Source of the DNA: Cyanobacteria bacterium P01_A01_bin.123
GTDB taxonomy: Bacteria > Cyanobacteriota > Cyanobacteriia > Phormidesmidales > Phormidesmidaceae
DNA: 64,000 bases
Assembly: GCA_039815185.1 (NCBI GenBank)
Contig: JBCBZT010000014.1
Span: 78,436-142,435 of the forward strand
Reading direction: 5' to 3'
The notes under the pieces are model-generated. The model worked only from the letters and a program-made list of their open reading frames with translations, was not told where the DNA came from and ran no database searches. Shown here piece by piece: positions 12,876 through 25,879 of this stretch. The position numbers and the translations under genes are program-made. The number at the start of each line of letters is the position of its first letter. Within the stretch, counting starts at the first letter, position 1.

Positions 12876-13131
12876 TAGACTTTACCGACAATGACCGGGT
12901 CAGCTTATGGAATGATTAATTGACTCTAATCTATGGATTGTTGAATAAGACTTTATTTTTATCAAGGGTGAATGATAGGCTGACATTACAGTCTTGGTGT
13001 GATGGCATTGTTATTGGGCTGTAGCAACTGTTGGGGGTCTTTACGGTTTAAGATTTTCTAAAGTATTCTCCACTGCGCGATCCCCTATCGATCTAAGGGT
13101 CTTCCTTTATTGACGCACGTTAGGTATTTCT

Positions 13132-15339
13132 ATGACCGCTGTAACTCCTAAACCCACCATTCCCGCGTTTTGCGAAGGCATTCAGTACTTTGGCGAAGCG
13201 CCACCCAATTTTGAGCGCTACGGCACTTCCCCTGTAATTGCGTCAGGACAGGCTGCGATCGCCTCTCCCAGTCATCCCGCTGCGGTTTATCAAACCCTGT
13301 TGGCCGCCGATGCCCTCCGTTATCTAACGCTACAAACGACGGCAACCAAGGCATCGGGGCATCCGGGTGGGTTCGCTAGCATTGCCGACGCGATCGCGTC
13401 CTTGGTGATGCTAGGCCACAAAAATCTGATTACTGAAGTCGGTCACCATGCCCCTGGGTTTTACAGCACGGTCTTTCTCGATCGCTCCCTAGAGGCGATG
13501 GGCATTGAAACCGTACAGCAGCTTGGTGAACGGTTTCGCGAAACCCACGGTTTGTTGGGTCACCTTTCCGGTCAAATTCCGGGCTTGCTCAACCCTGCAG
13601 GCCCTCTAGGGCAGGGGCAACACTTTGCCATGGCGGGGGCCCGCCTCCATCCTGGTATCCTCTTCCCCGTCACCATTGGTGATGGGGGTTTGGGGGAACC
13701 CTACATCATGAGTAGCTTTGGCCACTTTCACACGGCCTACCCTGGTGTAACCAACTTCCTGCCGATACTGGTATGGAACGGCTACTCCCAAGAGCACCAC
13801 AGTATGGTTTCCACTCAGTCCAATGAAGATATGGTGGCGTACTGGCGGGGTAATGGCTTTGAAAAAGTCATTTTGGTGGATGCTAAAGCTTTCGATGATG
13901 CCGGCCAACCCGGTGATTATGTGGACAGCACGGCGTTTTCGTTCCAGCAGCGACTTGCCTTTACCCAAGCTGTGCTAGAAGCGACTGACCGCGCTGCCCA
14001 AGCAGCCCTCGACGGCACCCTCACCGTGCTGATTGTCAAACAGCTTAAGGGCGCTGGAGTGCACAAACGGGGAGCCCAATCCCACAACCTTTACCCGGGT
14101 GACACGCTGGAAAAAGACTATATTGTGTCCGCCCTCCAGGCGCGATCGCTGCCTGCGGCTGCCTGGCAAACCGTACGCACCAATTTTGAACGAGCTAACG
14201 GCGGCCCTTCCTCCAGTACAGCCGTTACCGAATCTGAATATGCCATCCCTGACTTGGGCGCTATTCCCCTCAATGAATTTCCGGTTGGGGGTGACAAACA
14301 GATCGCAACCACTGCGATGGGTCATCTAGTGGCTTATGTCGGGCAACAAGATCCACAATTTGTTGTGGCGAATGCCGATGGTAACGCCGCCTCCGGTATC
14401 AACAACATCAACGTTGCACTCAAAATTATCCACCCCACTGCTGATACGACCTACTATCAGCAGCCCCAAGGCCAAGTCTATGAACCCTTGAGCGAAGATG
14501 CCTGTGCTGGGTTCGCGGCTGGCGCTGCTCTGTTCGGTGCCCGCACCCTATGGTGTTCCTACGAGTCTTTTGCCATCAATGGATTACCCATTTGGCAAAC
14601 CGTGACTCAGGCGATGGCTGAGCTGCGTCGCCCGACTCCGTCCACCATTACCCTGTTCACAGCGGGGGCGCTAGAACAAGGTCGTAACGGCTGGACCCAC
14701 CAACGCCCAGAAATTGAAAATTACTTTGCGGGGATGATGCGCAACGGCAATGTATTTCCCCTCTTCCCGACTGACGCCAACGGGATTCAAGCCTGCTATG
14801 AGTGGGCATTGACAACGAAAAACAAAGGCATCACGATCACTGCTAGTAAGTCGCCGTTACCTATTCGCACAACTTTGGATCAAACCCGGCAGGCACTGGA
14901 AAAAGGGGCGATCGTCCTAGAATCTACCCCTGGCGATAAAACCGTCGTTTTTGCCGTGATTGGTGACATGACGCTGCTGCCTGTCTACGAAGCCGCCACC
15001 CAGTTGGCAACCCAGGGCATTGGTTCTCGCATTGTGAGCGTGGTCAATCCGCGACGGCTCTATCGCCCTACCGACGTCGCCTGGGAGAGCTGTTCCCAAG
15101 CCGATGGCGACTTTCTCAGCGATGCCGACTTCGGAGAGCTTTTTGCGGGTGATATCTTGCTAGGCATTACAGGGGGTACCAGTGCAACTCTAGAACCCGT
15201 GATGTTGCGCTCTACCTTACCCAGAGATGTATTTGCTTGGAAACGCGGTGAAACGACTGCGAGCGCAGCAAAACTGATGGCTTTAAACGGCATCACCGCC
15301 GAGAATTTCGTCAGCCGTGCTCAGCAACTTTTGGCGTAA
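13132..15339 (+). CDS. ThDP-dependent phosphoketolase/transketolase-like enzyme
   Basis: SGHPGG, GPLGQG, ThDP motif GDGGLGE...VWN, EPLSEDAC and QGRNGWTHQRPE. Confidence 0.85.
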   Translation: MTAVTPKPTIPAFCEGIQYFGEAPPNFERYGTSPVIASGQAAIASPSHPAAVYQTLLAADALRYLTLQTTATKASGHPGGFASIADAIASLVMLGHKNLITEVGHHAPGFYSTVFLDRSLEAMGIETVQQLGERFRETHGLLGHLSGQIPGLLNPAGPLGQGQHFAMAGARLHPGILFPVTIGDGGLGEPYIMSSFGHFHTAYPGVTNFLPILVWNGYSQEHHSMVSTQSNEDMVAYWRGNGFEKVILVDAKAFDDAGQPGDYVDSTAFSFQQRLAFTQAVLEATDRAAQAALDGTLTVLIVKQLKGAGVHKRGAQSHNLYPGDTLEKDYIVSALQARSLPAAAWQTVRTNFERANGGPSSSTAVTESEYAIPDLGAIPLNEFPVGGDKQIATTAMGHLVAYVGQQDPQFVVANADGNAASGINNINVALKIIHPTADTTYYQQPQGQVYEPLSEDACAGFAAGAALFGARTLWCSYESFAINGLPIWQTVTQAMAELRRPTPSTITLFTAGALEQGRNGWTHQRPEIENYFAGMMRNGNVFPLFPTDANGIQACYEWALTTKNKGITITASKSPLPIRTTLDQTRQALEKGAIVLESTPGDKTVVFAVIGDMTLLPVYEAATQLATQGIGSRIVSVVNPRRLYRPTDVAWESCSQADGDFLSDADFGELFAGDILLGITGGTSATLEPVMLRSTLPRDVFAWKRGETTASAAKLMALNGITAENFVSRAQQLLA

Positions 15340-16123
15340 AGGTCAACTGATAGCGATAGAGCGCTACCGGACGATTTAAGGCTTTGAAATAGTCTGGATC
15401 TCGGGAAGATAGATAAATTGCCGTGACTTGATTGGCTGTAATCACGGCCTCGTTATCCTCTTCCACCTGAGAGTAAGCTGTCGTTGTTTCCACTTCGTTC
15501 AAGAAGGGCTGGGTAGTACCTCGAAACACTTGCTGAAATATTTCTGAGGTAACAAATTTATCCGCTGAGGGCGACTCTGTGGCTCGAGCGGTGATGGTGG
15601 AAACCAACTGGCGATCGCCCCTTAAAATCGTAATCTGACGGTTAGGATTATCCGGGTCAACCTTAACCGCTTTGACAGCCTCGTCTCCCAAATAGGCTCG
15701 TGCTAAACTCAGCCCGTTGTAGGCTCGGTCTGAAACTATCTCTGGTGCAGACTGCTTGAGCTGGGGCAAAAATCGATTGAAATGACGCGGAGTTGCCGGG
15801 ACAAACTTGACTAAGCAATCAACTGGACGGTTCAAGTATTGACGATTGCCTTCAAAGCCAGGCGTAATGATTTCTGGAGCTAAAGGCGCAACCATATCTA
15901 TCAACACTGTGCGCATTTTCCAGGTTCCCGCCATCCAAGTAGGATAGGCCAAATCGCCCTCGGCCACATCAACTGGAGGTTTGCCCTCCCATTGGGGGAA
16001 TTGGACCAAGCGATCGCTGAGGTCTCCAGCCCTAGCTTCACCACTGCAAAAGAGCCATACTAGCAGCAACAGCGTAATCAAAAAAAGTTTGCGTCGAATG
16101 CGTTTGGGCTGCCAACGGGACAT
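15311..16123 (-). CDS. conserved hypothetical exported protein (DUF6816-like)
   Basis: Signal-peptide-like N-terminus and DLAYPTWMAGTW, SDRAYN, EVETTTAY patterns that I recall from cyanobacterial/plastid proteins. Confidence 0.65.
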   Translation of the reverse strand: MSRWQPKRIRRKLFLITLLLLVWLFCSGEARAGDLSDRLVQFPQWEGKPPVDVAEGDLAYPTWMAGTWKMRTVLIDMVAPLAPEIITPGFEGNRQYLNRPVDCLVKFVPATPRHFNRFLPQLKQSAPEIVSDRAYNGLSLARAYLGDEAVKAVKVDPDNPNRQITILRGDRQLVSTITARATESPSADKFVTSEIFQQVFRGTTQPFLNEVETTTAYSQVEEDNEAVITANQVTAIYLSSRDPDYFKALNRPVALYRYQLTFTPKVAEHG

Positions 16124-16157
16124 AGTTATCGTTTAAGGGATGTCTCAAATCAATTTT

Positions 16158-16862
16158 TCAAGCTTTTTTTTCTGTGCTGAGCCTGTGCTCAGATTTTGGA
16201 TACATTACTCGGAATAACGTTTGCTCGCATATACCCCAGTAATAGATACATACATTGAGGATAGCCAGCATTTTCGTACCATCTTCTAACAAAGCAGGTG
16301 TTCCCTTACCGGGGAGTTTAGCAACATCTGAAATGCCTGAAATAATTAGCAGCACTAGTGCAATGAGAAGTAAAATATAAGGTGTTGACAATAAAATTTT
16401 TCGATAAATCCACCCATATGCGACAACTGAAATTCCATAGGTTAGATATGAAATTAGCTTGGGGACACTTAGGAAAACTTTAAATATCAGTGTCAACCTA
16501 AATAAGTCGTCAGCCAAAAAAATGGTAAGAAGAATTGCTGAAGACAAAATGAATCTCTTATAAATACTCCTGACTTTGTGAGAACGTAAAAACAGATATG
16601 TAAACCAACAGATACCAACGGCTACACACCAGAAAAAATCAGATATACCAGTAAACAAGCCATAAAAAGGAAATGTATCTGAGAAAAAATCTGAAAATAA
16701 CGTGTTGATAATATAGCCACGTTTTCCACCTCCAAGTTTCGCGTAAATGCCGAGAAACATGAAAGTTGAGAGAAAGAAAAGATTTAAAAGACTAAAAGGA
16801 AGACTAGTTCTTAAAAAAAGAATACTTTCACGAATACCAAAGGTTTTGGATAAAAAAAACAT
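16158..16862 (-). CDS. polytopic membrane protein of unknown function (polysaccharide locus)
   Basis: About six hydrophobic segments with LADDLF and LLEDGTK motifs. AT-rich DNA. Confidence 0.7.
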   Translation of the reverse strand: MFFLSKTFGIRESILFLRTSLPFSLLNLFFLSTFMFLGIYAKLGGGKRGYIINTLFSDFFSDTFPFYGLFTGISDFFWCVAVGICWFTYLFLRSHKVRSIYKRFILSSAILLTIFLADDLFRLTLIFKVFLSVPKLISYLTYGISVVAYGWIYRKILLSTPYILLLIALVLLIISGISDVAKLPGKGTPALLEDGTKMLAILNVCIYYWGICEQTLFRVMYPKSEHRLSTEKKA

Positions 16863-17068
16863 TGACTTACATACTCTCGTAAAAGAAAACCACCCTACAT
16901 ATATGTAAAATCTAGAATCCTGTTCAAACCAACCAAATATTAACGAATTTTGAAATTTTAGGACGACAAGCCTAGACTAGGAGGCTAGCTAGACCAGTAA
17001 GGAGAAAGTATCAAAATCTATCAAGCCTTAAACGGCTATATTAGTCTGTAGATATATATAAATCACAA

Positions 17069-17755
17069 CTAGTATTGATAATTCAGAAGCCCAATTTCAC
17101 GATGGCAAATCTCTTCAATCATCGATTGTGATTCTTTGCTTAAGATTTGCTTGTAGTTTAGATTCTTGGGACGATTATTATACTTTGTCTTTGGGATATT
17201 AAGAGCGCTAGGCAGACCTAAAATTTTGGAGACTTTCTCCAGTTCATAATCTAGGTCTTCAAATCGAGCGATGTAGTCTACGGCTATTTCACCTAAAATA
17301 CTGTAAATTCCAAAGTTGGAAATCTTATTTGAATCTTCACGTTGTAAAAAGCTACATAGACTCGGAGGTTCAGACAAGCCTGCGGTCTTCCAGTAGTACC
17401 ATGATACAGCTTTATCCCACGGATTTCGTTCAAAGCAGAATTTAAAGTAATTATTCCATACTGATTGAGGAATAGTAGCCCGGACATCTTGGGCTGTTGT
17501 ATGGTTGACATACTGGATACGGCTTCTTGTTTTCAAAAGCTTTAGCCAAGCATAGAAGTGGTAGTTTCGGATTGATGGAATATAGTTTTGTTTGCCAAGA
17601 CCTGTATGGGCGTGGCGAATTTTTTCATCTTTGGGCACGAGAGGAGCAAGAACATCTTTTCTCTCACAATGATGAGATAAGCCAATTTCTATACTTGTTC
17701 CAGCTGTTTTTCGGGTCTTGAGAAAGATAAATTTATACTTGTGGCAGATGATCAT
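17069..17755 (-). CDS. sulfotransferase family 2 protein
   Basis: 5'-PAPS loop FIFLKTRKTAGTSI, 3'-PB motif FERNPWDKAVSWY, and RFEDL. Confidence 0.88.
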   Translation of the reverse strand: MIICHKYKFIFLKTRKTAGTSIEIGLSHHCERKDVLAPLVPKDEKIRHAHTGLGKQNYIPSIRNYHFYAWLKLLKTRSRIQYVNHTTAQDVRATIPQSVWNNYFKFCFERNPWDKAVSWYYWKTAGLSEPPSLCSFLQREDSNKISNFGIYSILGEIAVDYIARFEDLDYELEKVSKILGLPSALNIPKTKYNNRPKNLNYKQILSKESQSMIEEICHREIGLLNYQY

Positions 17756-17891
17756 TTTAATAACCCTGATTCCTAACTTTAGAAGCTGTGATCAAATCAA
17801 CTCGAGACTTGGAGCGTGAAGCTGCTTAATTGAATTAGTGAGTTGAAACAGACTCGCGAAAGGTTGTAGTGAATCCGAATATTTCTGCTTT

Positions 17892-18746
17892 TTAGTACAA
17901 AAACCAATCTGAAATATCTAAGTTGTACTCGCTCTCAAGCCTAACTAGATCATCACTCAAAGCATCAAGTATAAATTTCTTCTGGACTTCAGTTAGAGGA
18001 GAAACAGTCTTGCTGTCATTGAGCAGTGGCTTAGCCAATACACCCCGAACTTTATTTTTAAGAGGATCTGGTGCCAAGTTCTTCAACGGTTTCCAGTAAC
18101 GTGAGTTCCTTAGTAAATGCCAGATTGTATCAGTTCTGTAGGAATTCTCAGAGTTATGTACCTTACCGAGAGAAAATTTGAAAGATGAATCTAGGTCTAG
18201 GAAGTTGCAAACATTCTCCATCACAATACTAGGCTTATCCCTAAGATCCTCAGTTTTCAGGAGAAGAATATTTTCAAGAGAAAAACCATCGACAAATTTA
18301 TCGACTATTACAGCATATCTAGCACGTTCAATTACCTCCGCAGGAACACTCGTCGGTGTCTCTTTTTTTAGGAATTCAGAATACCAACCCTGATAGGTAC
18401 CATGCCTCCTCATTGACTCGATCTTCTGTACAGGATTTCTCAGAAGATAGATAAATTTAAATTCTGACTCTATAGTTTTTATGCGCTGAATAACCGTTTC
18501 TACTGCCAGTAAAGAATTAGTATAGCTAGGAGATGCTTCTAAAGCTGTCAAATGTTTATCCGGATCCCACTCCCATAAATCTCTATAATACTCAATTCCC
18601 TTAGTCCATTGATGATCCTTGGAAAAGAAATTGGTTTCTTTGATTTTAGAAACTGAGATTTGTGGATGTTGAGATAAATACGAAAATAAACTTGTTGTTC
18701 CTCCCTTTTGAGTACCTATAATTATACTAAGATTATTTATCTCCAT
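17892..18746 (-). CDS. sulfotransferase family 1 protein
   Basis: IIGTQKGGTTSL, KETNFF, EASPSY and LRNPVQKIES. Confidence 0.92.
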   Translation of the reverse strand: MEINNLSIIIGTQKGGTTSLFSYLSQHPQISVSKIKETNFFSKDHQWTKGIEYYRDLWEWDPDKHLTALEASPSYTNSLLAVETVIQRIKTIESEFKFIYLLRNPVQKIESMRRHGTYQGWYSEFLKKETPTSVPAEVIERARYAVIVDKFVDGFSLENILLLKTEDLRDKPSIVMENVCNFLDLDSSFKFSLGKVHNSENSYRTDTIWHLLRNSRYWKPLKNLAPDPLKNKVRGVLAKPLLNDSKTVSPLTEVQKKFILDALSDDLVRLESEYNLDISDWFLY

Positions 18747-18937
18747 AGCTATTCCCAGAAATGAAAGTCCAGTAGACGACTAACTCCGAAAGATGTTTTA
18801 AGAACTCTCTGAACTGAATTTGGTTATCTAAGTCATCCAAGAATCAAGATAAAACTCTTCTTTAGACTTCTAGATCCAAAAAAAAGTTAAAGTTTTAAAT
18901 TTCCTTTGGCTTTACTGGAGATTCAACAGGAACAAAA

Positions 18938-19837
18938 TCAGGATCCGCCTACTCTTTCTTCTCGGAAGGCACTAATTTCTGCTTTAGAATAAAAATGATT
19001 AACGTATTTAGACAAATACATTTTGTCTAAATAGCTTTCAGGAAGTGAAAGGGTTTTCTTAAATAACTTGTAACATTGAGCATAGCTTTTATCTGCCCCA
19101 ATGTTCTCAGACTTTACTTCAAAGTCCTTGATTCCTAAAAAAATGTTGAATGCTTCCGCTACTACTTGGTTGAGAACTTCTAATTTTAATATTAAAACAT
19201 CTGCTTGCTCACCTTCGCATATCTGATACCCTCTTTCCATGTCAAAGGGAATTGAAAAAACATCGATCCCGAAAGTTGGCTTCATTTCTAAATCAAACCA
19301 GCTTAATGGTACATCATGGTATGAGAACTCTTCTAAAAAAAGCCTTTTCAATTCATCAAGTATAGACTCCATATTATCTGTTTTGATTTTCTCTCTTAAA
19401 GAGAAACCAAATAGATACTCAAGATTTTGAAAGAAACTAGATATATTCTTAGCCACTGGATCTCTGGTAAGAGTAATGACCTTTAGCTTTTCTCTCTTTG
19501 ATTGTTTTAGATATCTCCTGATATAAAAGCTATGTATGAGTGGGGTATGAATAGCCTGTATTCGAGAATAGTTTTCTCTATAAAAGCCTTCACTTTTATG
19601 GAGGCCTGGATCAGATAAATAATGAGTATGATATATGGAATATTTGTCTGGATCCGGGTTGAGGGTTTTTAATGATTCATATATAGCTGTGGAAGCGACT
19701 TTTCCCATTTGATGAACAACTATGGGCTGCTTGTTAGTTGAACTATCTAAGAATAATACTTTTAGATGATGATATGCTCTCGCAAAATGGTAATTGCTTC
19801 TCAGTATTTTCTGAAAGAGTATTTTAGGTGATTCCAT
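18938..19837 (-). CDS. putative capsular polysaccharide synthesis protein (sulfotransferase-like fold)
   Basis: HQMGKVAST, YHTHY, LTRDPVAKNISSFFQN, WFDLEM and HFYS motifs. Confidence 0.8.
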   Translation of the reverse strand: MESPKILFQKILRSNYHFARAYHHLKVLFLDSSTNKQPIVVHQMGKVASTAIYESLKTLNPDPDKYSIYHTHYLSDPGLHKSEGFYRENYSRIQAIHTPLIHSFYIRRYLKQSKREKLKVITLTRDPVAKNISSFFQNLEYLFGFSLREKIKTDNMESILDELKRLFLEEFSYHDVPLSWFDLEMKPTFGIDVFSIPFDMERGYQICEGEQADVLILKLEVLNQVVAEAFNIFLGIKDFEVKSENIGADKSYAQCYKLFKKTLSLPESYLDKMYLSKYVNHFYSKAEISAFREERVGGS

Positions 19838-19857
19838 CTCAAGAAAATTTTGAACCT

Positions 19858-21042
19858 CTAATTCTCAAAGAAAAATTTTCGACAAATTTCTTCTAAGTTT
19901 GCATTAAATCGAGAAATCTCAAAGTGTTTGCAAACTTCTTGCCTCAGCCACTCAGGATTGTACAAGTTTTGGTTAGCATAGGTACCTTGGAGGATTTCGA
20001 TCAGCTTAGCTGCGATCGCAGCTTCGTCATCTGGATCGACTAAGCAGCCTAGCTTACCGTTGAGGAGGGGATCAACTGAACCATCTTGGTTCCCGGCTAG
20101 AACAAGTCTACCCGATGCTAAAGCTTCAAGGTAGACAATGCCAAACCCTTCTCCCTTGCTGGGCATGGCAAAAACATCACATAGACTGTAGTAGTCCGGT
20201 AATTCTTCGTCAGGCACAAACCCCGTTAAAGTAACGCAATCCTGCAAGTTAAGTTCGGCAATCATTGCTTCAATTCGGGGTCGATCGTCACCTTTTCCCA
20301 CTAGAACATAATGGACATCTGGAACCTGTTGGCGAATTTTGGGCAACATCCGCAAAATCTTGTCGTACCCCTTGTAGTGGGCGAATCCTTGTAGGCGAGT
20401 GACGGTTAAGATAATGGGTTGCTCTGGTTTTAGGTTATGACGATCAAGGAGATAGGTAGGTTTGGGTTGCAGCTTAAACCGAGCAGGATCAAACGTATTC
20501 GGCAATACACACATTTGATCGGGGTTGAGATACCCCTCGGCGAGCACGCGATCGCGCGTGTACTGACTAACCGCGATTACCCGATCTGCGCCCTGTAAGG
20601 CTTTCTGATAGGCGGTATTTTTGATATCCCATGCTTCTATGCCATGCAAAACCACCCAATAGGGAATACCTAAGCGTTGGTAGAGCTTATGGCAAAGGAC
20701 AACGTAGTAATTAATTTCGGTCGTGACAATGAGGGCTGGGCGATAGATTAAGGCATTTACTAAAATCGTGGCGGCTGATAAGAGGGTTCGAAACCGTCGC
20801 CGCCAGCCGTTAGTGTCGCAGACCCGCTCGCCAAACGCAAAGAAGCGAGTCTGCGGCAAAAAGGAGAAGTCACTGACAGCATCGGAAGTAGACCGCTCAT
20901 ACTTGAGAAACACGCTATAACGTGCATCTGGGTACACCTTCTGGATTCCTTGTAAAACCAAGGCAGAATAGACCTGCACGCCGCCTTTGAATCCAAAAAA
21001 ATTGGGCGCTAGGACGAAAAAGTGGTTGGGTGATGCTGTCAT
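19858..21042 (-). CDS. glycosyltransferase family 4
   Basis: GGVQVY, HGIEAW, YKGYD and FAMPSKGEGFGIVYLEALASG. Confidence 0.93.
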   Translation of the reverse strand: MTASPNHFFVLAPNFFGFKGGVQVYSALVLQGIQKVYPDARYSVFLKYERSTSDAVSDFSFLPQTRFFAFGERVCDTNGWRRRFRTLLSAATILVNALIYRPALIVTTEINYYVVLCHKLYQRLGIPYWVVLHGIEAWDIKNTAYQKALQGADRVIAVSQYTRDRVLAEGYLNPDQMCVLPNTFDPARFKLQPKPTYLLDRHNLKPEQPIILTVTRLQGFAHYKGYDKILRMLPKIRQQVPDVHYVLVGKGDDRPRIEAMIAELNLQDCVTLTGFVPDEELPDYYSLCDVFAMPSKGEGFGIVYLEALASGRLVLAGNQDGSVDPLLNGKLGCLVDPDDEAAIAAKLIEILQGTYANQNLYNPEWLRQEVCKHFEISRFNANLEEICRKFFFEN

Positions 21043-21052
21043 GACGCTAAAT

Positions 21053-22753
21053 CTATGACGATACGGCAGTGGGAGCGGTTCGCTGGATCAGGGACTGTCC
21101 ATCGAGATGCTGAGGGATGGGGGCATCCATCAATCCTAGAATAGTAGGTGCTAAATCAATAGCTTGTCCTTCTGGCAGATCCGAACCCGCTTCAATGCCA
21201 GGCCCCTTCGCCATCACGAATCCCCTAGAGGTATGCCCACCAGGACGATAGTAGGTGAGTGGGCCAATCCGGCCTAGATCAGGGCTGTCAATGACATCTG
21301 TTGGGTTGTTATGCCAAGACACGACTAAATCCGCATCGGGACGTTTTTCATCGCCATAATCTCCCGCTGGGCGGGTGCGAGCCACCGATTTAACGATTGG
21401 CTGGCCTGTTCTGGCATCAGTTAGTCGATATAGAATCTCGGTCAATTCATCACAAATTGACTCATATTCTGAAGGTTTGACAAACCCATCGCGATCGCGT
21501 CCTTCTAAGTTAATGCGAATAAAGCCCTCGGCAACGCCAGGTAAGACAAATGCCTTCATCTCAGGCCATAGACGTTGATACCACATGTTTGGCATCCAAG
21601 CTAAATCTTCACCCTGCTTTAGCATTTCATAGGGGGAATCCAGAGCTGGTTCAGGACCAGAATTGAGCACTTTGTCAAACTTGCTGGGTGTCCAGCGATG
21701 GAACAAGCGTTTGATTGGATTAACCCCGTACCGCTCTTGCCAAACTTCGCCCGGCCAGGTTTTGCGCTTTGGATTAGCAATTTGTGCTGGTGGGGTAGTA
21801 TCTAGTTTCCCTAGGGCTATACCAGCCTTACCTGGGAAATTGTATCGATAGAGCAACTCGGGCAAAAAGGCCATGTTGCAGAGGTCAGCCATGTTGTTGG
21901 TGATGCCATGAACCCCAAAAACCACTACGTAAGCATCCTGAGGTAAATCGGCAATAATCTCACCAACGGCTTGATCAACGGCTTGTACCGCCTTAATCAT
22001 GGGATTATTCGCTGAGTTGTTGGCGGAATCGGGATGCAGGGGATGATCTACCTCGCTAAAGTGGAGCAAATCATGGCCTGCGGAGTGGGTTTCTCCAAAG
22101 ACCGTGATGAATAAATCCCAAGGCTTCTGCTTCAGGAAATCGCGACAAATTTTTGAGCGGGTGGATGCACTGTCAGCAACCGCTTTTTGAATCCACTCTA
22201 AATAATTTGGATCCCACCAAACGCCAAAATCACGCTTGAACAAAGGATTGCGACCATACTTCTTATTGATGTCAGGCAACAAGCTAGTTGGGGTCGAACG
22301 GGGATCCATGTGGGAGCCACTATGACCGCCCCAAACGGCGATCTCAACACCATTGAAATCTTCGCTAACCCCAGACATTGGCACATCAAATAGGCCAATT
22401 TGGTAGTTTGGGTCGAAGTCATAAAAAGCTTTGAATTCTTTATAGTCGTACCCTAAGGATTGCCCCTCATCGGTTCTATCCTGGGTAACCTGATAGCTAT
22501 CTGCATGGTATTTAGCCGTGTCCCAGTAGCCAGTTTTGCTGGGTAAACAGCCCGTTGAAAAAATTACCCAGTTGCGCTCGGAGCATATACTATCAACGGG
22601 TTCACCGCACAAATCAAATTGAGTTCTGAGCCTTCCATAAGCTCCTTGCTGGCGAAGTGTCGCTAGATTCTTAAGATATCCTTGATCCATTAAGCGCTCT
22701 AACAAAACAGGATCAGCAGCATCTAGTCCAATTGCAATTACGGGCCTTTTCAC
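21053..22753 (-). CDS. alkaline phosphatase superfamily protein (nucleotide pyrophosphatase/phosphodiesterase type)
   Basis: IAIGLDAAD, ETHSAGH, IRINLEGRD, GGHTSRG and IDLAPTILGLM...LDGQSL. Confidence 0.85.
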   Translation of the reverse strand: MKRPVIAIGLDAADPVLLERLMDQGYLKNLATLRQQGAYGRLRTQFDLCGEPVDSICSERNWVIFSTGCLPSKTGYWDTAKYHADSYQVTQDRTDEGQSLGYDYKEFKAFYDFDPNYQIGLFDVPMSGVSEDFNGVEIAVWGGHSGSHMDPRSTPTSLLPDINKKYGRNPLFKRDFGVWWDPNYLEWIQKAVADSASTRSKICRDFLKQKPWDLFITVFGETHSAGHDLLHFSEVDHPLHPDSANNSANNPMIKAVQAVDQAVGEIIADLPQDAYVVVFGVHGITNNMADLCNMAFLPELLYRYNFPGKAGIALGKLDTTPPAQIANPKRKTWPGEVWQERYGVNPIKRLFHRWTPSKFDKVLNSGPEPALDSPYEMLKQGEDLAWMPNMWYQRLWPEMKAFVLPGVAEGFIRINLEGRDRDGFVKPSEYESICDELTEILYRLTDARTGQPIVKSVARTRPAGDYGDEKRPDADLVVSWHNNPTDVIDSPDLGRIGPLTYYRPGGHTSRGFVMAKGPGIEAGSDLPEGQAIDLAPTILGLMDAPIPQHLDGQSLIQRTAPTAVSS

Positions 22754-23008
22754 AATTATCTCCTTATCATTTACTCAAATTCAGTCAACGGGGTTTATTG
22801 AGACTTTTTGGAAAGGGGGAGGTGGCATCTTTCCCAACTCAACTTCACGCTCATGCTATAGTCTAGTAATTTTTAAGTTGGTTGAGCCACACTACTAATT
22901 AAATCTGCAGCAGTCTTCATACTTTCTGTGCTGCTACATTAATCTTACAAAAATCTCTTCAGAGGATTTTCACTACTTATAGACAGATGCTCAAGATTGA
23001 CCTCGACT

Positions 23009-24946
23009 TCAATCATGTTTAGCATCCATTGGTCGCGGTTTCGAGAGCTGGAAACCTTGGGCGTAGGCGATTCCCAAAGTTTTCACATGACTTAAAACGG
23101 CTGGGGTTTCAACGCCTTTTGCAATCATAGAAAGATCCACGCCACTGTGTTTTCTCATCATCTCCTGAAATGTTTTAAAACCATTGGAAATTTCATCTGT
23201 AGACTTCGCCAGGCAGATATTGAACTTGACGAAGCTAACAGGGTAATTCTTCAGCAAGTCGCTGCAATTTCGATGTACCCCAAAATTATCAATAATTAGT
23301 TGACAACCTAGTTCATTTAATCCATTGGCAAACTTTGTAACTTCTGGAAAGTACTCAACGGCGATCGATTCTGAAACTTCAAAACACAACTGATCTGCAC
23401 GAAGATTTGACTGGGTTAAACACTCAGCAACAAAATCTATAAATTGACGATCGCAAACACTAGCCCGAGACAGATTAAAGGAATGGATGTTGGGCAAATT
23501 TTGAGACTGAGATGGCTGAGTTGTTAAGGCATGAGTTTTAAGAAAGCGACGTAATACCCATCTATCTAAAGTGCGTGCTAGTCCATAATGCTCAATGACA
23601 GGCATAAATTCCCTTGGATTGCCAGGTGTGTCACCACCTAATCGCACAAATACTTCTTGCTGGGCCAGGGGATGCTCCAAATGCTCAATAGCGATAACGG
23701 GTTGTTGATAAAGTTGAAACTGATCTTGCTCAAATCCTGCGGTGATGCGCTTCAGCCAAAGGTCTTGATCAGGAATAGCTCGAATGCTTTGGTTCTGTAG
23801 AAAGTCTTGATAGGTTTTCTTCAACAGGAAGAAAGGGCTGACTACGGAACTGGTTAAGTGCTCTCGTTCACAGGCGATAACCCAATTATCCGTTGATGGG
23901 GTGCCGTGTCTAACCCAATGCAGCGCAAGCCTGCGCAAATCATTGGCGATGTAAGCTGGCACCAGCAGCGGACGTTTCCAATCGGTGATGCCTAACATAC
24001 GGATATAAAACCGACTCAGCCCAATACATCGAAGTAACGTTTTGAGATAATCAAGCTGTAATCGGCTATTGGGAATTAGATGCTCAACCACCATGTCTGG
24101 GTTGTACCAAACTTCCCAGCCTCCTTTTTGGATGTGAAGGGCTGCTTCCAAATCTTCGCTGGCTAATCCTGCCCCTTTGCCCTTGTTATCCAAAAACAGC
24201 TTTTCAGGCACTGACGCTAGCCAAGCCTTACGCCTAACTGCCAATCCGGCTCCAGGAGGCAAGATCTTAGTCTTAGGTTCGTATCGATGGGGTTGGCTAC
24301 CCCGCTCAACAATGGCTAAATAGGAGGCTATTTTTTGGAATCCTTCCGGGGGTGAGCCTTCAAACTTGCCGTGAATTTGACTACCAAAGGCACCCGCTTT
24401 GGGATAATGTTGACTGAACTCAAATGCATTTTTGACCCAGTCATGGGCGGGTAGGTTGTCATCATCTAAAAATGCGACCAATTCACCCTGAGCTAACTGA
24501 ATTGCATGCTGGCGGGCGTGAGCGGCACCCTGCTCAGCCGCGAAACCATACCTCAAAGTGCAACTTCTAATCCACTCCTGCTGATAAGCTTGCACAACAT
24601 CAGCAGTGGCATCAGTACTGTTGTTGTCACAGACAATCACTTCCCAGGAAATGTCATCAATGCCAGTTTGCGATCGCAGCCGATCTAAGACCAACGGTAG
24701 CCGTTTTGCACCGTTGTAGGTTGGGATGGCTACAGTAATATCCATAATCTGGCGTTGTTCCTTGGCCGCAGGTTCAGTTTGAGCGAACTGGGTAGCCGCG
24801 AAGGGACTATCTGTACTAGTTGATGCTGTATCAATTGATTCGGGTGCGATTTGGGAAACCATGGAAGGGGTGACCATCCTGCCTCTGTTAGCGGCAATGA
24901 ACGCCATGAAAGTCAAATCAGAAACCAAACTATTTGCATTTTTCAA
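23009..24946 (-). CDS. hpsE: HpsE-like GT2 glycosyltransferase fused to a degenerate C-terminal EAL domain
   Basis: VAIPTYNGAKRL, CDNNSTD, AFLDDDNLP, PPGAGL, ASEDLE and CIGLSR, followed by FQLYQQP, QEVFVR, FEVSE, IDNFG, AKGVE and AQGF. The start is uncertain (TTG at 24946, or a downstream ATG as far as 24745). Confidence 0.85.
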   Translation of the reverse strand: MKNANSLVSDLTFMAFIAANRGRMVTPSMVSQIAPESIDTASTSTDSPFAATQFAQTEPAAKEQRQIMDITVAIPTYNGAKRLPLVLDRLRSQTGIDDISWEVIVCDNNSTDATADVVQAYQQEWIRSCTLRYGFAAEQGAAHARQHAIQLAQGELVAFLDDDNLPAHDWVKNAFEFSQHYPKAGAFGSQIHGKFEGSPPEGFQKIASYLAIVERGSQPHRYEPKTKILPPGAGLAVRRKAWLASVPEKLFLDNKGKGAGLASEDLEAALHIQKGGWEVWYNPDMVVEHLIPNSRLQLDYLKTLLRCIGLSRFYIRMLGITDWKRPLLVPAYIANDLRRLALHWVRHGTPSTDNWVIACEREHLTSSVVSPFFLLKKTYQDFLQNQSIRAIPDQDLWLKRITAGFEQDQFQLYQQPVIAIEHLEHPLAQQEVFVRLGGDTPGNPREFMPVIEHYGLARTLDRWVLRRFLKTHALTTQPSQSQNLPNIHSFNLSRASVCDRQFIDFVAECLTQSNLRADQLCFEVSESIAVEYFPEVTKFANGLNELGCQLIIDNFGVHRNCSDLLKNYPVSFVKFNICLAKSTDEISNGFKTFQEMMRKHSGVDLSMIAKGVETPAVLSHVKTLGIAYAQGFQLSKPRPMDAKHD

Positions 24947-25400
24947 TGCTTTGGCTAGTCAAAACTGCATTAGGGGAAGTGAGTATTAGAGTTTAGCTGC
25001 AACGGGGCAGTTTAACTCCATATCACTGAAGGTTAGCCCATACGCCTAACCGATGTCGAACATTGGTGTGCGAGTGATTGTAACCGACCCCACAGTACAC
25101 CCCTACAATAAACCTGGTTGCAATTACAGACGCGACCCGGTTGAATTAATGTAGCCGACTGCAGCACTGCAAGGACTAAAGTCACTTGCGTAAATGAATC
25201 TCCTTACAATAGCAACACATTTTTCAATCCAGGCTCAACACAGCAAATGCAGCTTTACTCAGTCTTTATCGAAGATCAACAGCGGATCGAGAAAACTCCC
25301 ACATTGTAAGTATTTGATGAAGTTGGCCGTTTGGTATTTCCGTATTTCGACGCAGCTAACGGTTCTTGAAAATATAAATCTCATCTGATTTAAAGACTTC

Positions 25401-25428
25401 TTAGGGGCGCAAGGCCTTGCACCCCTAA
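25401..25428. repeat. REP-like palindrome
   Basis: TTAGGGGCGCAAGG-CCTTGCACCCCTAA. The core GGGGCGCAAGGCCTT recurs within 54103-54131. Confidence 0.65.
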
Positions 25429-25879
25429 AAGAGGGAAATGACAGGCTGGATGCGGCTAGGGGTTAGCGAAGAACGAGGGCGAGAGTTAACTATTTCTTGG
25501 CTAAACTGCTGAAACAATGATGTTGTCATCGTTGACAACACATCGTTATTTTTATACTGGAAATGTTTAGATCTATGTTCTAGATCTTATGTCTCTTAGA
25601 AAGACTGTTTTGCCTGGCTGACGTAAACTTATCGATGTCTATCCCAAAGACGTAATATCAATCCCTGCCTCTCAAGCAATTGATATCCCAAAATCGGAGC
25701 TTAACCCAACTTTAACACTTCACTAAAAAGGTGTCTGAGATAACTTTTTAAAATACGCAGGTTCTTGGAGTTTTTGATCTGGAGGTTATTCGCAGTTAAT
25801 CATTCGGATTAAACCTATCATGTCCTCTAAGGGGTGTCTCGCGGTTGATGGTTGTGTGTCTGTAGTCAGGTTGCTGTAA

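Follow-up and report, generated by a model that had tools for sequence, protein, structure and literature searches.

Several enzymes of bacterial polysaccharide synthesis are controlled by cyclic di-GMP (c-di-GMP). In BcsA, as portrayed in a passage on this enzyme, a PilZ domain that senses the nucleotide sits on the same chain as a family 2 glycosyltransferase (GT2), near the substrate site and its gating loop. PelD and BcsE also belong among these controlled systems, as do Alg44 and NfrB with its MshEN domain. Other receptors, such as FimX and LapD, bind c-di-GMP through a non-catalytic EAL domain in which the binding Arg is kept and loop 6 is degenerate. Part of the cyanobacterial literature describes many c-di-GMP enzymes and few known receptors (PMC12448109), and a cyclase has been tied to slime secretion and gliding, with no effector found in the portion of the account that deals with it (PMC10581220). 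Here we describe a gene in which a degenerate EAL domain is fused to a glycosyltransferase (GT) of the HpsE family; the closest known GT is HpsE (Npun_F0070), encoded in the hps locus of Nostoc punctiforme. The fusion gene lies in a 64,000-nucleotide stretch (hereafter the window) of Cyanobacteria bacterium P01_A01_bin.123 (contig JBCBZT010000014.1, positions 78,436 to 142,435, assembly GCA_039815185.1). The gene and its parts, in window coordinates, are as follows.

23009..24946, minus strand: HpsE-family GT2 fused to a degenerate EAL domain, 645 amino acids (aa) from TTG, probably 622 aa from the ATG at 24877
23825..24745, minus strand: GT2 domain of GT-A type, aa 68-374, matching the NCBIfam HpsE model NF038302
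24530..24628, minus strand: donor-binding loops of the GT predicted to contact the EAL domain, aa 107-116 and 133-139, including Ala136
23024..23794, minus strand: EAL domain, aa 385-641, with the first metal site (M1) and ligand contacts kept and the second metal site (M2) and loop 6 degenerate

The gene is a single open frame of 645 aa with a TTG start, and the later start at Met24 agrees with a 100% identical database protein of 622 aa. Its GT portion scores 442.2 bits against the HpsE equivalog model, above the curated cut-off of 300, and Pfam EAL matches aa 402-637 (about nt 23743-23036) with 140.5 bits. A preliminary description of this DNA, made by eye from the letters, had read one frame joining an HpsE-like GT2 to an EAL domain, and had quoted QEVFVR, SFNLS, FEVSE and QG as kept motifs and DNFGVHRNC, KFN and KGVE as changed ones; all of them can be found in the sequence, as can the intact DDFGTGYSS, KID and EGIE of the other EAL piece of the window (nt 2-307) with which they had been compared. 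The full-length fusion is modelled by AlphaFold2 with a mean predicted local distance difference test score (pLDDT) of 90.9 and a predicted template modelling score of 0.91. BcsA-type processive synthases carry a transmembrane (TM) channel on the GT chain, whereas the fusion has no TM helix (maximum 19-residue hydropathy 0.95); its sensor would be an EAL rather than a PilZ domain, on a soluble, non-processive GT with no channel or gating loop. An assembly artefact was considered and is ruled out by recurrence across genomes of the family and by independent contigs: a 40-kb contig from another study's run (X5) spans window positions 13000-25818 in one piece at 95-99% identity, and contigs of runs X2 and X3 also bridge the gene. 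The X5 contig carries about 378 extra bases at window position 25818, inside the 933-bp gap upstream of the fusion.

The residues kept and lost in the EAL domain form a consistent pattern across the 52 fusions found in genome loci. Q415, E431, R435, D461, N491, E523 and K574 are each present in 52/52, D553 in 51/52, Q630 in 51/51 and E613 in 45/51 (Asp in the other six). D554 is found in 24/52 and D576 in 3/52, E610, the first Glu of the EGVE motif, is absent (0/51, with Lys in 45), and the FGxGxSS positions of loop 6 are retained in 2-12 of about 51. A 117-row protein alignment agrees (K610 in 111 rows, Glu in none), while 25 intact EAL domains keep all the compared residues of the pocket, M2 and loop 6 at 90% or more. 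The window protein retains the M1 ligands E431, N491, E523 and D553 and the nucleotide contacts Q415, R435, K574, E613 and Q630, and is degenerate at the M2 positions (N554, N576 and K610).

These positions can be read against solved EAL domains. RbdA (PA0861) is the nearest by sequence and fold (E 2e-31); its M1 ligands E585, N646, E678 and D708, its D709 and E765 and its nucleotide contacts R589 and E768, as given in part of PMC11372557, map to fusion residues E431, N491, E523 and D553, N554 and K610, and R435 and E613, respectively. The M2 ligands D161, D183 and E217 of PA3825, taken from a section of PMC5301497, map to positions 554, 576 and 610. Compared with RbdA and the cyanobacterial CBS/PAS-GGDEF-EAL phosphodiesterases, the fusion has a GT2 in place of GGDEF, is variable at D709, has Lys for E765 and has lost DDFCAG. 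By sequence, then, its EAL domain has lost the second metal site and the dimer loop and has kept the first metal site and the ligand contacts: the M1 ligands of an active EAL phosphodiesterase are present and its M2 site and DDFGTG loop are not, and a kept binding pocket beside lost catalytic residues is what defines a degenerate receptor. The domain looks non-catalytic. FimX, which is among the nearest solved EAL domains, binds c-di-GMP at about 120 nM with 4/10 such residues according to an excerpt of PMC3527489. FimX and LapD differ from the fusion, which has no GGDEF, REC, PAS or HAMP domain, keeps the whole M1 site and is likely to have an enzyme of its own chain as output. D461 may contact guanine.

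Mean EAL identity among fusions is 37% (33% in the C-terminal half). Over eight close pairs without overlap, the ratio of nonsynonymous to synonymous substitution rates (dN/dS) comes to 0.20 in the EAL domain, as against 0.07 in the GT domain. We rejected a decaying relic for the family on this dN/dS of 0.20, though the pocket of one representative, P0128, has decayed (R435Q, N491S, D553G, E613N and Q630R). Since the P0128 domain persists with a decayed pocket, pocket conservation is not needed for the EAL fold.

The search for this architecture that the preliminary description had proposed found it to be single-copy in the window's family, which is one of filamentous cyanobacteria. With eight candidates scored per genome, 54 of 151 genomes each gave a single hit at E<=1e-160; 52 of these hits span both domains and two cover part of the model, and 12 of the 18 genera are represented. 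Among the best 120 of 308 homologues, 117 are GT2+EAL proteins and three are tandem GTs, with source names that include Leptothoe, Phormidesmis, Adonisia, Halomicronema and Romeria. A phylum sample of 401 genomes, with three candidates scored per genome, gave a two-domain match in just two, both of the window's family. In the Atlas, a homologue of the fusion is represented by a single GT2+EAL cluster, which has 99 members. The protein and genome sets overlap partly and their members are kin, so these counts are not independent. No independent GT2-EAL fusion was found elsewhere in the best 150 of 13,607 representatives at E<=1e-30, which is a statement of not found rather than of absence, and our literature search, which covered few subscription papers and could have passed over supplementary domain censuses, turned up no account of either a GT2-EAL or an HpsE-EAL fusion. 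The two-domain architecture itself is already in databases; the new part is the proposed mechanism.

A single origin of the fusion is likely, as far as quick trees without an approximately unbiased test can tell. The fused GT domains form one clade (53/213 rows, FastTree support 0.968), which is recovered in a smaller tree (20/60 selected rows) with an approximate likelihood-ratio support (SH-aLRT) of 96. This clade sits in the HpsE half of the HpsE/HpsF tree, where HpsE, HpsF and HpsG were told apart by their place in loci that also carry hpsA, B, C and J, and from the gene order given in a part of PMC10581220. Next to the clade lies the GT that occupies the hpsE position in L066, a canonical hpsA-B-C...J locus (SH-aLRT 95); the grouping with most canonical HpsE has a support of only 84. 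The fused EAL domains also form one clade (SH-aLRT 96, in a tree that used 20/52 fusions) and group with RbdA-like GGDEF-EAL proteins (SH-aLRT 99), including one on contig C131 of the window's genome. Because genus g3 is basal in the GT tree and nested in the EAL tree, the time at which Lys610 arose could not be placed.

The GT domain keeps its motifs: D107, R145, DDD161-163, ED264-265 and H289 are intact in 53/53 fusions, and the P371-E406 linker span is held at 35-37 aa in 52/52. When the two domains were modelled as split chains, with c-di-GMP and Mg riding along, they docked with an ipSAE interface score of 0.76, against 0.00 for the best control, a result to be read with the tendency of halves of one gene to pass such docking; the docking mark is reached by 116/157 solved and 2/215 mismatched pairs, counts that are roughly valid here. 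Contacts agreed between runs at 93% or more and partner pLDDT was at least 81. The predicted interface sets GT residues 107, 109-111, 115-116 and 133-139 against EAL residues 398-406, 454-466, 501 and 505. Its GT side is the loop equivalent to DDGS, whose Asp binds UDP in GT2 enzymes according to a passage on BcsA and presumably does so in the fusion. Helices 398-406 and 454-466 form the docking face, not the alpha6/switch loop of FimX and LapD, and no solved chain with both GT2 and EAL was seen among the structure matches listed.

Some residues at this predicted interface distinguish fusions from their relatives. At position 136, 159/160 unfused enzymes have Glu, the four nearest sisters among them, as do 65/68 further unfused representatives; 51/53 fusions have Ala or Val there, and the window protein has Ala. 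On the EAL side, 61 fusions have F405 in 55, G455 in 45, R458 in 38 and T459 in 46, whereas in 40 intact donor-like EAL domains the commonest residues at 405, 455, 458 and 459 are Leu (32), Asn (25), His (17) and Leu (10), with T459 in 8/40. The EAL surface predicted to face the GT has a mean top-residue frequency of 0.78, against 0.45 for the rest. Unfused sister GTs of g6 (L164:9819-10982 and L165:10234-11397) have Glu136, an unrelated tail and the same alkaline phosphatase (AP)-superfamily gene after them, and provide natural controls lacking an EAL domain.

The preliminary description had proposed direct c-di-GMP control of the GT. This is still the best reading because the EAL domain looks non-catalytic, keeps its pocket across the family, is under purifying selection and is predicted to dock at the donor site; binding of c-di-GMP is the step that we infer. 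We give a probability of roughly 0.52 to a model in which the EAL domain binds c-di-GMP without hydrolysing it and, by allostery, governs the donor site of a soluble GT that acts on repeat units. The EAL domain would bind c-di-GMP with one Mg and no cutting, Lys610 possibly replacing the charge of the lost second metal, and would pack on the sugar-donor loops of the GT, so that a signal could be relayed from helix 454-466 to D107 and the 133-139 loops. The GT may add a sugar to a lipid-linked repeat unit that variable neighbours would then decorate (here the AP enzyme, a GT4 and three sulfotransferase-fold proteins) and unlinked machinery would export; c-di-GMP would thereby directly control one step of surface-polysaccharide assembly. 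By analogy with BcsA we lean modestly toward activation over inhibition. An excerpt of PMC10581220 points the opposite way: slime and gliding are held down by a cyclase in L. boryana, where HpsE may or may not be built like the fusion.

Several observations weigh against direct control. The docking score covers the GT-EAL contact and leaves the ligand itself unscored. Taken together, the 13 interface positions of the GT show no greater fusion specificity than its other positions (p=0.50), and inter-domain mutual information with average product correction placed no interface pair in the top 500 (1.5 expected), in an underpowered alignment with an effective sequence number of 46. A few fusions (L023, P0064 and P0084) keep E136 with a normal EAL surface, and a divergent representative, P0125, keeps E610 but has S523, N554 and N576. 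Retention of the EAL residues is in part a legacy of the RbdA-like donor clade, in which D461 is found in 39/40. The fusion was also not found in the g8 (0/49) and g2 (0/13) genomes or in 24/42 g4 genomes. P0128, in which the interface residues outlast the pocket, fits a structural role in its lineage, and such a role is the strongest of the rival explanations, if an unlikely one: the EAL domain could stabilise the GT, join it to an HpsF-like GT or bind another nucleotide (pGpG or a nucleotide-sugar). An HpsF-like GT does follow the fusion in 34/49 loci, and tandem GT-GT fusions exist (the three noted above and L068). A scaffold would not be expected to hold eight polar pocket residues at 51-52/52 at a mean EAL identity of 37%, and two other degenerate EAL domains of the same genome have lost the ExxxR Arg, the pattern expected without ligand selection.

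Two further rivals accept ligand binding and move the output elsewhere. The EAL domain might bind c-di-GMP and act through localisation or partner recruitment (pilus, export machinery or a local cyclase, as in FimX) rather than through GT catalysis, which we hold to be slightly less likely still. The FimX and LapD EAL domains change little on binding and signal via partners or dimers, as the sources on them state in part, and local c-di-GMP action is proposed for L. boryana Dgc2 in a section of PMC10581220; in the fusions, by contrast, the alpha5/loop-6 dimer surface of LapD and RbdA is the least conserved part, lying in the poorly conserved C-terminal half, and it is the surface predicted to face the GT that is conserved. 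The least probable of these alternatives is a slow or conditional phosphodiesterase, a trigger enzyme that would deplete c-di-GMP locally as well as report it. The fusions do retain K574 and all four M1 ligands, more than FimX keeps, and one metal may suffice for weak hydrolysis, as argued in a passage of PMC3527489; against this, activation of the nucleophile depends on both M1 and M2 in the account excerpted from PMC5301497, and the fusions have D576 in 3/52, no E610 and no DDFGTG loop.

Two paralogous proteins of 379 and 385 aa in the window's genome (L161:2593-3729, minus strand, and L162:2186-3340, plus strand) are those with EAL domains more strongly degenerate than that of the fusion; they have K/R at the EGVE Glu in addition to the lost Arg, and their C-terminal ~130 aa have no Pfam match. 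Outside the fusion set, Lys at the EGVE Glu is also seen in a REC-GGDEF-EAL protein (L047:5867-7795, plus strand) and in P0211, P0217, P0256 and P0265, of which P0211 and P0217 may be fusion fragments; from these sequences, this Lys may be a recurrent way of silencing an EAL domain. GGDEF has 39 matches in the window's genome.

Downstream of the fusion, the following genes share its orientation.

21053..22753, minus strand: AP-superfamily protein (PF01663), no hydrophobic segment
19858..21042, minus strand: GT4 glycosyltransferase, with a close orthologue (75%) in one other locus only, L037
18938..19837, minus strand: NKWYS (PF10364) protein, predicted sulfotransferase fold, 34% GC
17892..18746, minus strand: sulfotransferase (Sulfotransfer_1/3), 37% GC
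17069..17755, minus strand: sulfotransferase (Sulfotransfer_2), 38.5% GC, no match in other fusion loci
16158..16862, minus strand: membrane protein with four TM segments (4-TM), no Pfam match, 35% GC
15311..16123, minus strand: DUF6816 protein, the eighth co-oriented gene, 50% GC, 34 bp from the preceding gene; only possibly part of the cluster

The gene identities are as first described, three sulfotransferase-fold proteins included, and the number of co-oriented genes is eight rather than seven. The NKWYS family, uncharacterised in Pfam, is predicted to have a sulfotransferase fold: the top 22 structural matches of its model (pLDDT 72) are all sulfotransferases (best Z 9.1, root-mean-square deviation 3.7, 179 residues aligned), and its Foldseek matches are weak (best E 7.8e-3). 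PDB sequence searches with the NKWYS and AP proteins were uninformative. In ten AP-superfamily sequences, with active-site positions placed by what we take to be the AP motif, the place expected for the nucleophile holds Ser, Thr or Ala beside Glu59, which never varies, and one Asp expected to bind metal is absent. A single operon is unproven because of intergenic gaps of 255, 191, 136 and 206 bp; a promoter scan of the cluster was at chance level (20 vs 20.2), and no convincing terminator was seen between the genes. No Pfam match to a flippase, polymerase or co-polymerase, and no export gene, was found among the eight cluster genes. The sulfotransferase and 4-TM genes have 34-39% GC, against 50% for the genome.

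The neighbourhood analysis scanned cluster representatives and most singletons of at least 120 aa, and many of its loci are truncated by the edge of a contig or of the fetched region. It shows a conserved GT partner and otherwise variable downstream genes. The HpsF-like GT2 is that partner, absent at the window locus; an HpsG-position GT2 lies downstream in 16/49 other loci, and the order fusion, HpsF-like, HpsG-position GT2 is seen in 10/49. The AP-superfamily gene (14/49, and also beside unfused sister GTs) is the commonest modifying partner, and another GT4 family occurs in 14/49, an NKWYS homologue in 4/49 and a flippase in 2/49; the remaining downstream genes are of several kinds (rare-sugar, acyl, methyl, sulfo). 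Of the first 37 other fusion loci, 7 have a homologue of the 4-TM protein nearby, pointing either way, and cbiT is directly upstream of the fusion in 40/51 loci but not at the window locus. Sulfotransferase-fold genes occur in 11/38 other loci with at least three downstream genes, and in two of these 11 every such match is weak. A conserved sulfated-exopolysaccharide operon is therefore rejected as a family trait, and the sulfated system of the preliminary description is not supported as a conserved unit, the Sulfotransfer_2 gene being without a match elsewhere and the cassette low in GC and strain-variable. The fusion thus heads variable glycan-modifying cassettes, of which sulfation is the version of the window's lineage, and chances are a little better than even that the window sulfotransferases act on the fusion's product. 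In the Synechan (xss) cluster of Synechocystis, GTs likewise lie beside sulfotransferases of the same Pfam families, a likeness at family level only; from the portion of its description that bears on this, xss is under transcriptional control (XssQ/R/S), and the window cluster differs in having no Wzx, Wzy or polysaccharide co-polymerase match.

Locus L037 (5651-11968), from a distant genus that is not the window's nearest fusion relative, resembles window positions 16158-22753 in its AP gene (77%), GT4 gene (75%) and 4-TM gene (50%), with two other genes where the three sulfotransferases sit; cassette exchange is likely. Genes encoding nonribosomal peptide synthetase-like A-KR-T-TE or T-TE proteins were seen close to loci L017, L029, L039, L044, L046, L058 and L059. 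Tandem HpsE-HpsF-type GT-GT fusions (L068:9194-11164; P0010, P0032 and P0119) hint that HpsE- and HpsF-type GTs work as a pair.

The fusion differs from HpsE of the hps locus in carrying an EAL domain and in not lying beside hpsA-D: in its own genome, hpsA-C homologues are on contig C60 and an hpsJ-like gene on C76, placing it outside an hpsA-D/E-K locus, and dispersed hps loci are known from part of the literature. The genome also has five unfused NF038302 (HpsE/F) paralogs, including one HpsE-like/HpsF-like pair on C121. Because of these paralogs, the fusion is only a candidate for one-to-one orthology with HpsE and for a role in gliding; with the hpsA-C homologues on another contig as well, the assignment to a motility polymer is unproven.

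The fusion is a soluble, single-copy candidate effector with specific mutable residues (R435, E431, K610, A136, F405 and T459). We propose, tentatively and at somewhat less than even odds, a new class of c-di-GMP effector, in which an EAL pocket that holds one metal sits on the site for the nucleotide-sugar in a soluble GT of Wzx/Wzy type and lets c-di-GMP gate one step of repeat-unit assembly. If direct control is correct, an EAL domain would control an enzyme on its own chain, and c-di-GMP would act on a non-processive GT rather than on a synthase. In these cyanobacteria, c-di-GMP would then determine how much of a gliding or mat polysaccharide is made, or its composition, with sulfation, rare-sugar and acylation cassettes interchangeable behind the gated step.

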